NCBI GenBank assembly: GCA_031268255.1
Contig: JAIRXO010000026.1
Span: forward strand, 1-25,158
Source: Spirochaetaceae bacterium
Lineage (GTDB): Bacteria; Spirochaetota; Spirochaetia; Treponematales; Breznakiellaceae
Length of the DNA stretch: 25,158 nucleotides
Reading direction: 5' to 3'
Part shown: positions 17,731-25,158 of the stretch, one piece after another
Layout of the letters: every line of letters starts with the position of its first letter
How positions within the stretch are numbered: position 1 is the first letter of the stretch
The notes under the pieces: generated by a model
Told to the model about the DNA's origin: nothing
The model's input: the letters and a program-made list of their open reading frames with translations, nothing else
Database searches by the model: none
Translations under genes and position numbers: made by a program

Positions 17731-17759
17731 GTGACAAAAGTTTTTTTCTGTGCTATGCT
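17731..17759 (+). promoter_or_regulatory. Probable sigma70 promoter of the PHP phosphatase gene
   Basis: GTGACA (17731-17736), 17 nt spacer, TATGCT (17754-17759) with an extended -10 TG at 17751-17752. The gene starts 19 nt later with little SD. Confidence 0.55.
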
Positions 17760-17778
17760 TTCTAAAGCAGTAAACAGC

Positions 17779-18540
17779 ATGATAGCCAACTACCATACCC
17801 ACACCCGCTGGTGCCGTCACGGAACCGGCGAAATCGAAGACTATATCCGGGAGGCCGTGAAGCGGGGGCTTGCGGAGCTTGCCATTACCGAACATGTGCC
17901 CCTGCCCGGCGATCCTGACCGGATACGCATATACTGCGATGAATTCGATGATTTTGACCGCGAGCTTGACAGTCTCATACAAAAGTACTCGGGGCGTATT
18001 ACGGTGCGCAAGGGTCTGGAATGTGAATATTATCCCAAACTCCTTGATTACTACCGGAACTTACAAGAAAAGCGCGGTTATGAGATTCTCCTCCTCGGCC
18101 AGCATACAAGCATAGACCGGCGCCTTGATAATTTTTGTCTGAGCAGGCCGGAAGAAGTGCTGCTCTATGCCGATGAGGTTACCGAAGGTCTTGCCACAGG
18201 TCTTTTTACTTTTCTTGCCCATCCTGACGTGCCCATTGCGGGCTATGGCAGGGCGGACAGTGCCTTTATGGAAGCAATGGATAAAATTTTTTCAAGCTGT
18301 GAAAAACTGGGTATTCCTGTGGAAATTAACGCCAACGGGCTTTATTATAAACGGGGATATCCCTGCCGGGAGGTCTGGAAGCTGGCGGCAAAGTACCGCC
18401 TTGACTGTCTTGTAAGCGCCGATGCCCACCATGTGGAAAACCTTGTCAGTCCCAGTGTGGAACAATGCGAGGCGCTGGCAAAGGAACTGCGTCTTACCGT
18501 GCTGTCACGCCTGCCCTCCCTTGATCCCTGTCCGCGATGA
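17779..18540 (+). CDS. PHP-domain phosphatase, HisJ/histidinol-phosphatase family
   Basis: NYHTHTRWCRHG, ITEH, GLECEY, FLAHPD, EINANG and SADAH metal ligands. Start at ATG 17779; the substrate is not established. Confidence 0.9.
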   Translation: MIANYHTHTRWCRHGTGEIEDYIREAVKRGLAELAITEHVPLPGDPDRIRIYCDEFDDFDRELDSLIQKYSGRITVRKGLECEYYPKLLDYYRNLQEKRGYEILLLGQHTSIDRRLDNFCLSRPEEVLLYADEVTEGLATGLFTFLAHPDVPIAGYGRADSAFMEAMDKIFSSCEKLGIPVEINANGLYYKRGYPCREVWKLAAKYRLDCLVSADAHHVENLVSPSVEQCEALAKELRLTVLSRLPSLDPCPR

Positions 18541-19315: not shown

Positions 19316-20752
19316 ATGCACAGCGCCTTAGTTACCGATTTTTATTCCCTTACCATGGCCCAGGGTTACTGGTTAAGGCAGCCCGGACAGGAAGCCGTGT
19401 TCGAGATGTTTTTCAGGCGTCAGCCCTTTGGCGGAGGCTTCTCGGTGTTCGCCGGTCTTGAGACCCTTCTTGAGACCCTGCGGGATGTCTCGTTTTCTTC
19501 CGGCGACATTGACTATCTCAAATCGCTGAATTTTTTCCGCGATCCCTTTCTTGACTATCTCAGGGATTTTCGTTTTACAGGAAGGCTCTGGTCCGTCGAT
19601 GAGGGCAGGATAGTGTTTCCCCAGGAGCCTCTGATACGCGTTCAGGGCAGCCTTATCGAGTGCCAGATCATCGAGGGCATGCTCCTCAACATCATCAATT
19701 TTCAAAGCCTTATCGCTACCAAATCCGCCCGGGTCTGGCTTGCCTCAAACAAGGGCGGTATCATGGAATTCGGCCTCAGAAGGGCACAGGGGCCTGACGG
19801 CGCCCTGTCCGCCTCCAGGGCAGCCTACATAGGCGGCGCCGGGGGAACTTCCAACGTGCTTGCCGGAAAGGAATACGGCATACCGGTCATGGGAACTATG
19901 GCCCATTCCTGGGTCATGTCCTACGAATCCGAAGAAGAAGCGTTCAGGGCCTATGCGGACATATACCCCGGGCATCCGGTGTTTCTCATTGATACCTACG
20001 ATACCCTCAGGAGCGGAATCAAGAACGCCGTAAAGGTCGGAAAGCAGCTTGCTTCCGAAGGAAAGAATTTCGGCGTGCGTCTTGATTCGGGGGACATACA
20101 TTACCTTGCCGTTGAGGTGCGGAAGATACTGGACGCGGAGGGGCTTCCCCAGGCGACCATAGCGGTGTCCAATGACCTTGACGAATCCATCATCAAAACC
20201 ATGACCGCCGCCGGCGCGCCCATTGATTCATGGGGCGTAGGCACCCAGCTTGTTACCGGCGGCAGCGAGGCGTCCTTTACCGGCGTTTACAAACTTACCG
20301 CGGTCCAGGATCAGGACGGCGGGTTTATTCCGGCGATAAAGTTTTCCGACAATCCCGAAAAGACCACCAATCCCGGAATCAAACAGGTATGGCGCATCAG
20401 GGACAGGCAGGGCAGGGCCCTCTCCGATGTCATGGCCCTGGATACCGGGAATGACGAGGTCAGGGCCGGAAGCCGTCATACCTTCTGGCATCCATCAGGG
20501 GACTACCGCCATGTTTACTGGGACGGCGAGGGCCGGCCCGAGGCCATGCTGAGTCTGAAAATGGAAAACGGCGGACCATGCCTGGACCATCCTCCGCTTG
20601 CCCGCATCAAAGAGAAACTCCGCGCCGAATTTGAATGTTTTGACGACAGTTACAAGCGTATGCTCAATCCCCATGTTTATAAAGTTTCGGTTACCGGACA
20701 GCTTCGGAACCTTAAACTTGAACTCATCAAAAATTACCTTGGGGACCTTTGA
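19316..20752 (+). CDS. pncB: Nicotinate phosphoribosyltransferase
   Basis: TDFYSLTM, EFGLRRA, GTSNV, GTMAHSWV, LIDTYD, VRLDSGD and WGVGT. Confidence 0.97.
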   Translation: MHSALVTDFYSLTMAQGYWLRQPGQEAVFEMFFRRQPFGGGFSVFAGLETLLETLRDVSFSSGDIDYLKSLNFFRDPFLDYLRDFRFTGRLWSVDEGRIVFPQEPLIRVQGSLIECQIIEGMLLNIINFQSLIATKSARVWLASNKGGIMEFGLRRAQGPDGALSASRAAYIGGAGGTSNVLAGKEYGIPVMGTMAHSWVMSYESEEEAFRAYADIYPGHPVFLIDTYDTLRSGIKNAVKVGKQLASEGKNFGVRLDSGDIHYLAVEVRKILDAEGLPQATIAVSNDLDESIIKTMTAAGAPIDSWGVGTQLVTGGSEASFTGVYKLTAVQDQDGGFIPAIKFSDNPEKTTNPGIKQVWRIRDRQGRALSDVMALDTGNDEVRAGSRHTFWHPSGDYRHVYWDGEGRPEAMLSLKMENGGPCLDHPPLARIKEKLRAEFECFDDSYKRMLNPHVYKVSVTGQLRNLKLELIKNYLGDL

Positions 20753-21642
20753 TGCAGGAAGCTTCCTGTCTGACGCGTTTTCTGGGCAGCGGGGAAGATT
20801 TTCCCTGGGACCTTGCCGACGCCTTTGACGCCGCCTGTAACGGCCTCGAAAATCCCGAAGCCCTTGCCCGCATGGAAAAACTTACGGGAAAGGAACTGCA
20901 AAGCTGGAAGCATCTGGTCCACGCGATCAGGGCCATGTACCGGGGCGATGAGGAAAGCTGCCGCGCTGCTTCTTCTTCCATAGATGACGCATCTCCTCCT
21001 TCTTCCCTCAAGGGCCTTTTTTCAGCCTGGGTTTCCGGGGTAAAGAACGCCGGTCAGGCGAATATCGCGGCAGGCGGGGTTTTCGCCGCACCGGTGAGGG
21101 AACTGTACCGGAAACTTTTGGTGCGTCCCCATCCCCTGCGGATCATAGCCGAGCAGGCCGATGAGGCGCTGCGTCAGGGCATGACCGGGCATTTTGAACG
21201 CCTGAGCCAGTCGGTATTCCGGGGACTGCGGGAAGAACGCCGCTGTGACAGCGCCCTTCTCGCCCTGCGCTACGCCCGTTACTGCCTTTCCCTCCTTAAC
21301 GAAGGAGGGTATACCCCGACTGATTTTTTTTCCCTGATAGTCAAAGTGCTGGGAAGGGCGGACGGATTTCTTGTTATAGGGATGAGCCTTCTTGACGATG
21401 ATGAAGAAGCGGCCCTGGAGGCACTGGAGGCGGCGCTGGAAGCCGCCCGTGATCAGATTCAGGAAACAGCGGAAGGGCCTGCCCCGGACAGGAGCGTCTT
21501 TCTTGATGCTGAAATGGCTCTCGCGCTGCGGGCCCTGACCGGCCTCATACCGGACGTTCCCGGCATGGCGGCGGGGAGCGGGAGAAGGCCAAAGAACAGC
21601 AGAGGCCCCAGGGAGTCCCCGGGGCAGCTTGAGTTGTTTTAG
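20752..21642 (+). CDS. Hypothetical helical protein with C-terminal QLELF motif
   Basis: Open 296-codon frame coupled to pncB through a TGATG overlap. No recognisable catalytic motif; it ends in a flexible tail followed by GQLELF*. Confidence 0.75.
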   Translation: MQEASCLTRFLGSGEDFPWDLADAFDAACNGLENPEALARMEKLTGKELQSWKHLVHAIRAMYRGDEESCRAASSSIDDASPPSSLKGLFSAWVSGVKNAGQANIAAGGVFAAPVRELYRKLLVRPHPLRIIAEQADEALRQGMTGHFERLSQSVFRGLREERRCDSALLALRYARYCLSLLNEGGYTPTDFFSLIVKVLGRADGFLVIGMSLLDDDEEAALEALEAALEAARDQIQETAEGPAPDRSVFLDAEMALALRALTGLIPDVPGMAAGSGRRPKNSRGPRESPGQLELF

Positions 21643-21656
21643 ATGAGGACCGTACA

Positions 21657-21881
21657 ATGAAAAGCGGCCTGCTGATTGAGAGGCTGAGAGAGCGATGCGT
21701 ATCGCTGGGAATAAAGACCGAAACCCTGGACCGGCTTGCCCTGGCCCTGACCATTCCCGCGTCGCTTGATGAACTGGAAGAAGCTCTGCCCCCGGCGGTC
21801 CGGTATCTGGGGCCGGGAGCATGGGCCGATACCATAGAAAAGACAGGGGCTTCCAACGAAGTTTCAAGGAGCGTGTCATGA
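21657..21881 (+). CDS. Small hypothetical protein (74 aa)
   Basis: GAGGA lies 7 nt before the ATG. The ORF fills the gap exactly, and its stop overlaps the next start (ATGA 21878-21881). Confidence 0.55.
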   Translation: MKSGLLIERLRERCVSLGIKTETLDRLALALTIPASLDELEEALPPAVRYLGPGAWADTIEKTGASNEVSRSVS

Positions 21882-23533
21882 AAGAGATACAGGTCCGGTT
21901 TAATACCGGCATGAACGTAAGCTGTCCTTTGGGAACCAGTATTGATGAACTTGTCGGCAAGCTGGAAATTTTCCCCCCGCATCTTGCGGCGGTAAAAATC
22001 AACAATAAAATTATGCCCCTTTCAACACGTCTTGATATAAACGCCGAGATAGAACCGGTGCTGCTTGATGTTCCCGAGGGGGTAATGATATACCGGCGTT
22101 CCCTGGCCTTCCTCCTTGCCAAAGCCGCCAGAAGAATTTTTCCTGACCGGGGCCTTTCCGTGGGCCATTCGCTGGGAAACACCTATTACTATACGTTCAA
22201 CCAGGAAAAAAAACCCACTGAGGAGGACGTGGCCGCGCTGGAAGCTGAGATGGAAAAACTTTCCCGCGAGGACCTTCCTATTGAATTTTTTTATATGGCC
22301 TACAGCGAGGCGCTTGAACTTTTCCGCAGCCGCCATCAGACCGATACGGCCCTGCTGCTTGACCAGCGCAGTGAGTCAAAGATACCGGTTAATCTCTGCG
22401 GCGATTTTGCCGACCTCTACATAGAACCCCTGGTCCCCCGGACAGGACTCCTTACGGCGTTCCATCTGATGAGCTACCGGGACGGCTTTCTCCTCCGCTT
22501 CCCCGGCGTAGGGCAGGACGGCGTCATAGAGCCCTTTGAGGACAGCCCCGGAATTTTTTCGGTATACCATGAATACAAAAAGTGGGGGAGGATAATCGGC
22601 GTCCACGCGGTGGGTCAGTTAAACAGTCTTGTGTCGGACCGTACCATACGGGATTACATACGCATAGCCGAGGCCTTTCAGGCCAAGAAGATGGCCGAGA
22701 TAGCCGGAAGAATTTACGAAAGAAAGGATGAAGTCAAGGTCGTACTCATAGCCGGACCTTCAAGCTCGGGCAAGACCACCAGCGCCAAAAGGCTTTCCAT
22801 TGAACTTAAAGTCATGGGCATGGAGCCTGTGGCCATAAGCCTTGATGATTATTACCGGGGCACCGAACAAACGCCCAAAGACGAGAACGGCCAGCCTGAC
22901 TTTGAGTGCCTTGAGGCCCTCGATGTGCCCTGTCTCAATGAGCAGCTCCTTGCCCTCTTTAAGGGGGAAGAAGTTGAAATCCCGTCTTTTGACTTCAAGG
23001 CGGGACGGCGCAGGGCCGAAGGAAAAAGCCTCCGCCTCGGCAGGAGGTCCATCCTTATCATCGAAGGCATACACGGCCTTAACGACGCCCTCACTCCGGC
23101 CATAGAGCGGTCAAAAAAATTCAAACTCTATGTCTCGGCTCTTACCCAGCTTAACCTTGACGACCACAACCGCATACCTACAAGCGACAACCGGCTCCTC
23201 CGCCGCATGGTACGGGACAACCAGTTCAGGGGCGCCGGAGCGGAAAGAACCATCAGGATGTGGCCTAACGTTCAGAAAGGCGAGCGCAAGCATATATTTC
23301 CCTTTCAGGACAGCGCCGACGCGGCCTTTAATTCGGCTCTTGACTACGAACTGGCGGTGCTGAAATTCTACGCCGATCCCCTGCTCCGCTCGGTAAAACC
23401 CACCATGGCCGAATACGCCGAAGCGGTGCGGCTTCTTTCCTTCCTTGAGAATTTCGCCCCCATACCGCCCCAGTATGTACCGGGAACGAGCATACTCCGC
23501 GAGTTTATAGGCGAATCGGAGTTTAAGTACTAG
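21878..23533 (+). CDS. Nucleoside kinase (uridine kinase family) fused to a ThrRS N-terminal TGS/editing-like region
   Basis: C-terminal P-loop IAGPSSSGKTT, SLDDYY and LIIEGIHGL. The N-terminal ~200 aa follow the ThrRS N1/N2 pattern (YRRSLAFLL, GHSLGNTYYY, GDFADLYIEP). ATG 21878 follows AAGGAG. Confidence 0.88.
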   Translation: MKEIQVRFNTGMNVSCPLGTSIDELVGKLEIFPPHLAAVKINNKIMPLSTRLDINAEIEPVLLDVPEGVMIYRRSLAFLLAKAARRIFPDRGLSVGHSLGNTYYYTFNQEKKPTEEDVAALEAEMEKLSREDLPIEFFYMAYSEALELFRSRHQTDTALLLDQRSESKIPVNLCGDFADLYIEPLVPRTGLLTAFHLMSYRDGFLLRFPGVGQDGVIEPFEDSPGIFSVYHEYKKWGRIIGVHAVGQLNSLVSDRTIRDYIRIAEAFQAKKMAEIAGRIYERKDEVKVVLIAGPSSSGKTTSAKRLSIELKVMGMEPVAISLDDYYRGTEQTPKDENGQPDFECLEALDVPCLNEQLLALFKGEEVEIPSFDFKAGRRRAEGKSLRLGRRSILIIEGIHGLNDALTPAIERSKKFKLYVSALTQLNLDDHNRIPTSDNRLLRRMVRDNQFRGAGAERTIRMWPNVQKGERKHIFPFQDSADAAFNSALDYELAVLKFYADPLLRSVKPTMAEYAEAVRLLSFLENFAPIPPQYVPGTSILREFIGESEFKY

Positions 23534-23618: not shown

Positions 23619-25158
23619 TTAAAGTAGCACTGATTTATTCGCATTCGAATAAATCAGTGCTTCCCTAGATGTCCGGGGAGCCGTGCGGGTATCGGCGGCA
23701 ATCGAAATTTTTGACCCAAGGGCTGTTTTGCTGACTTCTATACGCGAGGGAACGCGGGAGCGCATTTCGCCTACATGGGAGATAATCCCTACCATGCGGT
23801 GTTCCCTGAGTTCATCAAGTATGTTGAGGGCCTTGTCGAGACTGGCCTCGTCAAGGCTGCCAAAGCCCTCGTCTATAAATACCGCGTCGAGCCGTATGCC
23901 TCCTGAACGGGCCTGTATCGAATCGGCGAGGCCCAGGGCAAGGCTTATGGAGGCCATAAAACTTTCGCCCCCCGAGAGGGTTCCGCAGGGGCGGCTTCTT
24001 CCGGTATGGGCGTCAAAGACGGCGAGGTCAAGGCCCGTCTTGCCCCTGGCCCCTTCTCCCTCCCGGTCAAGTATCAGGGCGTAGCGTCCCTCGCTCATTC
24101 TTTCGAGGCGCTTTGTGGCATAGGCGCTTACCTCGCTGAGATAACGGCCCAGGAGCCACACGTCAAAGGCAGGTTTCTTTTTGTCATTGCCCGAGAGGTC
24201 GTCGGAGAGGGCCTTGTATCGCCGGGTCTCTTTGGCGAGTTCTTCCCGCCGGGCTGAGATTTCGGCGTACTGCTTTTGGTCCCGTCCGGCGGCGGCAAGT
24301 TCCCCGGCGGCCTCATCCCGTATGCTCTGGATTTCGCGGTAGTCGTTTTCAAGGTCTGCCAGTTCCCGCTCTGTTTCGGCCCTGGTCCCCGGACGGGTGG
24401 CGCCTTCTTTTTCCTTCCCCAGTGAAGCAAGGTCATCCTCAAGATTTTTTACGCGGCCCGAAAGTTCAGCTTTCTTTTCTCCCCGCAGCCTGAGGCTTTT
24501 TTCCAGACCGGCTATGCCGTCTTCGGAAAGCGAGGCATCCTCAAGGGCCTGTAGATCGGGGAAGGGGGACGCGGCGAGTTTTTCCGCAAAGGCCCTCTGC
24601 CCTTCGCCATGGCGGAGTTCCGCCTGACGCCGCGCCTCCTTTGCCGCCGCCGATCCTGTCCTGGCCGACGCGAGCGCGAGGGCCGCGTTTTCCTTTTCTT
24701 TTTTGTAGGCCGCGTCTTCCTTTTCTTTTCCGGCGAGGATGCTGTCGAGGGCGGCCAGGGCGGAGAGGACATCGGGGGCATCCCATTCCCTGATACGGTT
24801 TTCGTATTTTGCCCTGCACGATGCCGCGGCTTCTTCCAGGGCTTTTTTTCTCGCGTCAAGAACAGCCTGTTCCCTGCCGGATTCCGATACCTCGTCCCGC
24901 AGGGCATCCCGCTCCGCGCGGGCCTGCTGTATCTGTCCTGATGCCCTGCGGCCCTCTTCCCGCCGAACACTGATTTTATTGAGACCGGCGGCGTGGGTTT
25001 GCAGCAGCCTTTCCGCTTCGGGTAATTCGGGCAGGGAGGCAGGGCCCTGGTGCAGGGGAACAGCGCCCTCTTCCCCGCCTTCGGAGAGGAGGGCGCGGTA
25101 TTCCTGTTTTAACGCTTCTTCCCGCGCCGCTGTTTTTTTTAGTTCGCCGGCTTTGGAA
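23619..25158 (-). CDS. sbcC: SbcC/Rad50-family SMC-like ATPase, C-terminal part (5' end beyond window)
   Basis: TLSGGESF signature, VFIDEGFGSLD Walker B/D-loop and GIISHV. I checked codon by codon that the frame stays open from 24161 to the window end through an Ala/Glu-rich coiled coil ending LSDDLSGNDKKKPAFDVWLL. Confidence 0.93.
   Translation of the reverse strand, partial: SKAGELKKTAAREEALKQEYRALLSEGGEEGAVPLHQGPASLPELPEAERLLQTHAAGLNKISVRREEGRRASGQIQQARAERDALRDEVSESGREQAVLDARKKALEEAAASCRAKYENRIREWDAPDVLSALAALDSILAGKEKEDAAYKKEKENAALALASARTGSAAAKEARRQAELRHGEGQRAFAEKLAASPFPDLQALEDASLSEDGIAGLEKSLRLRGEKKAELSGRVKNLEDDLASLGKEKEGATRPGTRAETERELADLENDYREIQSIRDEAAGELAAAGRDQKQYAEISARREELAKETRRYKALSDDLSGNDKKKPAFDVWLLGRYLSEVSAYATKRLERMSEGRYALILDREGEGARGKTGLDLAVFDAHTGRSRPCGTLSGGESFMASISLALGLADSIQARSGGIRLDAVFIDEGFGSLDEASLDKALNILDELREHRMVGIISHVGEMRSRVPSRIEVSKTALGSKISIAADTRTAPRTSREALIYSNANKSVLL
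23620..23667. repeat. Palindrome H3 (perfect 16-bp core) related to H1, lying inside the sbcC 3' end
   Basis: AGCACTGATTTATTCG (23626-23641), loop CATT, CGAATAAATCAGTGCT (23646-23661). The outer end read on the minus strand, TAGGGAAGCACTGATTTA, matches the H1 end at 14/18. Confidence 0.85.

Follow-up and report, generated by a model that had tools for sequence, protein, structure and literature searches.

To our knowledge, the described interactome of the bacterial beta sliding clamp (DnaN) is small, and almost all of its members are DNA enzymes. Its known clients, which are enzymes or AAA+ regulators that act on DNA, include Pol II (with the peptide QLGLF), Pol IV (QLVLGL), B. subtilis Pol Y1 (QLDLF), Pol I (QLELF) and Hda (QLSLPL). 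Probably only a subset of clamp partners has been found so far, according to a 2024 review, which defines the clamp-binding motif as Q-phi-x-[L/M]-[F/L] and names QLxLF as its highest-affinity form (PMC11139829). Here we analyse a gene with the working name X (20752-21642, plus strand) in a stretch of 25,158 nucleotides (nt) from a Spirochaetaceae bacterium (contig JAIRXO010000026.1, assembly GCA_031268255.1; hereafter the window), the product of which ends in QLELF. On the basis of its sequence and those of its homologues, we predict that X is probably a non-catalytic adaptor of the beta clamp. X resembles the known clients in carrying such a penta- or hexapeptide on a disordered terminus, where it is conserved amid varying flanks. 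It differs from them in having no catalytic, nucleotide-binding or detected DNA-binding domain; its body appears to be a TPR-like scaffold accompanied by a separate or fused partner domain of 60 amino acids (aa), and its binding to the clamp is a prediction. X also shares its logic with the PCNA adaptors of eukaryotes and archaea, in which a PIP-box on a basic, disordered tail links a module without enzymatic activity to the clamp, although the clamp and the motif are different ones and there is zero homology. Non-catalytic adaptors are, as far as we know, scarcely documented for the bacterial beta clamp. The parallel between PCNA and the motifs recognised by the beta clamp has been drawn before (PMC11139829).

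The pentapeptide at the C-terminus of X is almost certainly a functional short linear motif. The translation of X is stop-free and runs to ...RESPGQLELF, followed by TAG, which agrees with the C-terminal GQLELF reported in an earlier note on this DNA. That note had also proposed a comparison of homologues, and its outcome was the one expected of a binding motif, with the peptide conserved while the tail diverges. Among 67 representatives, the motif columns are conserved at 94% (Q), 86% (L), 70% (E), 94% (L) and 94% (F), and the motif block is 78% conserved, compared with averages of 16% and 21% in the two preceding ten-residue blocks. A family-wide alignment of 48 members, which reaches down to approximately 20% identity, contains six invariant columns only (D23, G31, W52, Q292, L295 and F296), and these include Q, L4 and F5 of the motif. 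The motif was present in all 58 complete genes from the fetched loci. It reads exactly QL[ED]LF in 46 of the 50 unfused genes (the other four have QPELF, QMELF, QLSLF and QLEFF), with 0-9 variable residues behind it. The eight fused forms, in which the partner domain continues the same chain, have the motif in an internal position and never have Leu as its second residue (QPDLF, QPELF, QRELF, QAELF, QRYLF, QPELV). A free carboxylate is therefore dispensable for the motif, as the trailing residues of the unfused forms and the internal position in the fusions show, and the same is true of known clamp-binding motifs. Overall, Q1, L4 and F5 are fixed, position 2 tolerates substitution and position 3 holds E, D or S, a pattern that mirrors the experimentally established position rules of clamp-binding motifs. 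Every codon available for Gln (two), Leu (six) and Phe (two) occurs at the motif across the 58 genes, and this free synonymous choice indicates that it is the peptide, not the DNA, that is under selection. The genome from which the window comes is a 1.96-Mb assembly in 306 contigs with 75% completeness; of its 8943 stop-to-stop frames of >=80 aa, X alone has QL[DES]LF within the final 20 residues.

X founds an undescribed and uncharacterised family of the Spirochaetota. Comparison of X with Pfam, NCBIfam and PADLOC gave zero family matches, a profile search of PDB sequences returned nothing below an E-value of 0.03, and literature searches yielded no description of the family. Eight close relatives of X were found, in termite-gut assemblies of Spirochaetaceae and Treponema and in Breznakiella homolactica, which is in culture. 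An exhaustive HMMER search recovered 68 representative clusters at E<=1e-3, with identities down to approximately 25% and E-values down to 1e-119. Homologues were found at 22 loci in species-representative genomes and at 51 metagenomic loci, the named distant members being listed as 'Spirochaetales bacterium'.

A 74-aa open reading frame (ORF) that follows X, and that is absent from the earlier note, is the obligate partner of X. A homologue of this ORF is adjacent or fused to X at 21 of the 22 genome loci (at L003 the DNA ends before the partner). At eight of the 22 it forms the C-terminal domain of X, behind the motif, as a natural fusion; where the two genes are separate, the split comes directly behind the motif. 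Among the distant loci, an ORF with [YH][LIV]GP[GR]xW follows X at 36 of the 42 complete ones, most of the others being short contigs; the 36 include loci that lack UdkL, our working name for the ThrRS-like/kinase gene downstream. Because of this constant adjacency and the natural fusions, we regard X and the 74-aa protein as the two parts of a single unit that can be split or fused. The 74-aa ORF matched no Pfam family at E<=0.1, its NCBIfam and PADLOC scans were empty, and the protein atlas gave no usable hit. A helix-hairpin-helix (HhH) reading of the partner was considered, since its GPG hairpin between two helices resembles this fold by eye, and was rejected, as no HhH model matches. One distant version of the partner (L048:8997-9293, plus strand) has a J-domain-like N-terminal start (DPFARLGVSRNA...YRQAL) before the GPGxW motif.

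The AlphaFold2 model of X, built from nine sequences, has 14 helices and a mean predicted local distance difference test score (pLDDT) of 70, with residues 269-296 below 50. Conserved blocks in the body include D23-A-F..N30-G31..N34-P35, W52 and Y63, and residues ~213-230 form an acidic helix (LLDDDEEAALEALEAALE). The model of a natural fused homologue (L011:7956-9020), based on a 70-row alignment, reached a pLDDT of 92.1 and a predicted template modelling score of 0.85. It comprises helical lobes at residues ~12-131 and 130-264 and a small four-helix C-terminal domain at residues 291-350 (pLDDT 88-97), whereas the motif-bearing linker at 261-290 is the only stretch of low confidence (pLDDT 56-67, versus >88 elsewhere), which suggests that the motif is not docked in cis. 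With both models, the matches from Foldseek and from an exhaustive structural aligner were TPR-type domains only, at Z-scores of 7-8 and Foldseek E-values of 0.05 or worse, which is chance level for helical models. The lobes align with TPR domains of approximately 100 residues (2xev, Z 8.1, root-mean-square deviation 4.1 over 109 residues; 4yvq, Z 7.9, 3.3 over 103 residues), and the neighbours of X in the protein atlas bear TPR names. A non-catalytic adaptor role is plausible, as in TPR and TPR-like peptide-binding scaffolds (for example HOP TPR1, CpoB/YbgF TPR and FLU-TPR). X differs from these scaffolds, however, in that no Pfam TPR model matches it at E<=0.1, and weak TPR hits occur only in two distant relatives of 634-862 aa, elsewhere in their chains. 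Since the Z-scores are at background for helical proteins, the term 'TPR-like scaffold' describes the predicted fold of X and not membership of a family. The features read from the sequence in the earlier note, namely a helical-looking body, an acidic patch and a Gly/Pro/Arg-rich tail, are all present in the model or the translation, and its statement that X has no catalytic motif stands after the Pfam and NCBIfam scans and the fold searches. The Foldseek comparison that it suggested produced TPR-type helical matches at background scores only.

We consider the beta clamp to be the best-supported putative receptor of the motif, and probably the actual one, because the peptide fits the high-affinity consensus exactly, is carried on a disordered basic tether and persists in clades that differ in all neighbours except the partner. 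We propose a hypothetical mechanism in which (i) the two-lobed TPR-like body of X would associate with the small protein encoded next to it; (ii) a disordered basic tether of 25-50 residues would present QL[E/D]LF, either at its end or, in the fusions, within it; (iii) this peptide would insert into the hydrophobic pocket that DnaN forms between its domains II and III; and (iv) the X-partner unit would thereby be tethered to DNA-loaded clamps, with its helical groove holding a client, for which the co-translated ThrRS-like/P-loop kinase UdkL would be the best candidate. What we infer from these data is that X binds DnaN, which client it would hold and which role it would play in the cell. Two clamps that are only distantly related both bind a QLELF peptide in vitro. 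A canonical clamp pocket appears to be present in Breznakiella, a relative in which X has a homologue: its DnaN, encoded at L025:1489-2592 on the minus strand, is 28% identical overall to that of E. coli, but nine of the twelve residues of subsite I are the same (R152, T172, G174, R176, L177, P242, R246, V247 and M362; residue list from PMC11139829), and the three changes are conservative (L155M, H175R and V360I).

The gene order at the window is pncB-TGATG-X-(14 nt)-partner-ATGA-UdkL (Table 1). The ATG of X shares bases with the TGA of pncB (ttTGATGcag), as the translational coupling described earlier requires, and close homologues begin at the same MQE..SCL. The 14 nt between the stop of X and the 74-aa ORF contain an AGGA ribosome-binding site. 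UdkL has an open frame of 570 aa, and its probable start, ATG 21878, overlaps the stop of the 74-aa ORF (ATGA) and is preceded by AGGAG 6 nt upstream. No terminator-like site is prominent within the gene run around X. On the opposite strand, the C-terminal part of an SbcC/Rad50-like ATPase (window 23619-25157, minus strand) converges on the end of the operon, and the same neighbour is found in L001, L002 and L004.

Table 1. Gene X, its parts and the surrounding genes, in coordinates of the window.
Feature	Position	Strand	Basis or remark
PHP/HisJ-like phosphatase	17731-18540		Upstream of pncA
pncA	18577-19305		Gene upstream of pncB
pncB, nicotinate phosphoribosyltransferase	19316..20752	+	NCBIfam NF006695, 2e-184; TGATG overlap with X
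Gene X	20752..21642	+	296-aa protein P0001; ORF and translation
Predicted two-lobed, all-alpha TPR-like body of X, residues ~17-265	20800..21546	+	AlphaFold2 models
Disordered Gly/Pro/Arg/Lys-rich tether of X, residues ~269-291	21556..21624	+	pLDDT <50; sequence and length vary among homologues
C-terminal pentapeptide QLELF of X, residues 292-296	21625..21639	+	Fits beta-clamp-binding consensus QLxLF
Small partner gene, 74 aa	21657..21881	+	Conserved ...F[ED]EL..LPPxxRY[LV]GPGxW[IM]xAI
UdkL: ThrRS N-terminal-like (TGS + N2) region, then uridine-kinase/PRK-type P-loop domain	21878..23533	+	Pfam, NCBIfam and PDB matches

At every related genome locus with enough downstream DNA (19 loci), UdkL lies directly downstream of X and its partner. 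The order X-partner-UdkL is also kept in most of the distant loci, where X is 22-35% and UdkL approximately 50% identical to the window proteins. Upstream of X, pncB occurs in 16 of the 22 genome loci only, and no locus of the distant clade was found to have it beside X. Directly upstream of X in every non-treponeme-clade locus (L027-L077) that reaches far enough is a co-directional gene for an HD-GYP-type phosphohydrolase (PF13487, ~388 aa), for example at L058:5552-6718 (plus strand) and at L059:6334-7125 (plus strand), the latter 4 nt from X. The deep linkage of X is to the partner and UdkL and not to pncB, and the coupling of pncB to X is local history. The earlier suggestion that co-expression of X with NAD-salvage genes is meaningful finds no support on these counts, pncB being replaced by HD-GYP in the distant clade. 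A rationale for X through NAD and DNA ligase was likewise rejected: the pncB linkage is limited to one lineage, the termite-gut treponemes, and a pncA-pncB run leads directly into UdkL, with X absent, in two genomes of the same family (L100, L101). UdkL itself occurs in 129 of 401 sampled Spirochaetota genomes, far more widely than X. Its N-terminus aligns to the TGS and editing region of ThrRS (1tje, 1nyq), and a three-domain relative from T. maritima showed no activity forming nucleoside monophosphates, that is, no nucleoside-kinase activity (PMC10248530). In two loci, the open frame that holds UdkL runs to 970 aa (L098 of genome G031) and 818 aa (L099 of genome G095), so that the kinase there may be fused or greatly extended at its N-terminus.

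Several observations weigh against a role at the clamp. The X family occurs in 5 of the 401 evenly sampled Spirochaetota genomes; X is a rare accessory gene and therefore no core part of the replisome. Searches with PF00712 and PF02768 did not find dnaN in the window's own genome, which is the 75%-complete assembly. For the P, R or A at position 2 of the fused forms, weaker clamp binding is expected from published peptide data (PMC11139829). Of the conserved neighbours (HD-GYP, UdkL and pncAB), none is a recognised gene of DNA replication or repair. UdkL, moreover, cannot be a universal client of X, because one sub-clade keeps HD-GYP, X and the partner without UdkL, and X still ends in GQLDLF there. 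The main rival to the clamp is that Qx[E/D]LF docks to another protein, be it the partner, the TGS/ThrRS-N2-like domains of UdkL or the HD-GYP protein, and that X is the regulatory subunit of a nucleotide-metabolism complex that has no link to DNA. Much of the genetic context would fit such a complex: the conserved neighbours are all nucleotide or second-messenger enzymes, the partner ORF always accompanies X, the translational coupling suggests a stoichiometric assembly of a type that TPR-like bodies commonly build, and the motif is weakened in the fused forms. The motif, however, is unchanged both in clades without UdkL and in clades without an HD-GYP neighbour, so that neither protein can be its universal receptor, and the fusion model shows no part less ordered than the motif stretch, which packs neither on the small domain nor on the body. 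The exact match to the top-affinity clamp consensus, including D, E or S at position 3, would also have to be a coincidence. We therefore regard docking to another protein as rather unlikely and favour the clamp.

Two further explanations concern the peptide or the ORF as such. The peptide could be a degradation or quality-control tag through which a protease adaptor (of ClpXP, Lon or a similar system) sets the level of X, and its terminal or near-terminal position in 50 of the 58 genes, on a disordered tail like that of many degrons, would suit this function. Yet 0-9 variable residues trail the motif, approximately 70 residues and a folded domain lie behind it in the eight fusions, and we know of no degron that features an invariant N-terminal Gln; we consider a degron very improbable. 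That the ORF or its motif is a functionless chance feature of GC-rich sequence, for which only the absence of database annotation speaks, is already refuted by the 68 representative homologues, the invariant columns, the codon use at the motif, the uniqueness of X in the genome-wide frame count, the conserved synteny and the confident AlphaFold2 model.

If X is indeed a clamp adaptor, a scaffold free of enzymatic activity and equipped with a top-affinity clamp motif would extend the 'tool-belt' of the clamp to adaptors, as is the case for PCNA. The mechanism of this new family, if our proposal is right, would be that of a bacterial clamp adaptor made of two parts and lacking catalytic activity, and it would provide the first functional handle on the UdkL-type, three-domain, ThrRS-like 'uridine kinase' and on the 60-aa GPGxW partner domain. 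A more far-reaching version is doubtful: in it, the bacterial beta sliding clamp would have in X and its partner its first dedicated adaptor of a non-catalytic, TPR-like type; the pair would bring UdkL to DNA-loaded clamps and would in this way couple the phosphorylation of nucleotides, NAD or nucleic-acid ends to replication or repair in spirochaetes. The cultured host Breznakiella homolactica RmG30 carries the X module, which makes the prediction directly testable.

A DNA-level search of the complete Breznakiella genome for the pattern Q[LF][DE][LF]F gave 15 sites, versus 10 for the reversed control. Just two of the 15 close a long ORF, one belonging to the X homologue and the other to a 1125-aa UvrD-like helicase that ends in ...KKDSQLDLF. 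In three further genomes, 30 of 45 sites were read, and among these no hit other than the X homologue fell close to a long ORF's end. The UvrD-like helicase (L093:57-3434, minus strand; ~3651356-3654733 in the Breznakiella homolactica genome, G001) has an N-terminal extension of approximately 490 residues and is a second candidate clamp client in this lineage. Near-consensus peptides also occur elsewhere in the window's own genome. A ZapB-like coiled-coil protein (contig C165, L026:1032-1616, minus strand; PF06005, 3.9e-12) has a long Pro/Ala/Gln-rich tail that ends in ...DSDQLDIF, so that this cell-division protein bears a clamp-type peptide close to the consensus. On contig C82, a radical-SAM and HhH protein (L023:2256-3524, plus strand) ends in ...LQLPLFDF, and the next ORF (L023:3550-4077, plus strand) has ...EVQMSLFDV near its N-terminus; this pair, both members of which contain peptides resembling clamp motifs, is similar to 'putative DNA modification/repair radical SAM' genes.

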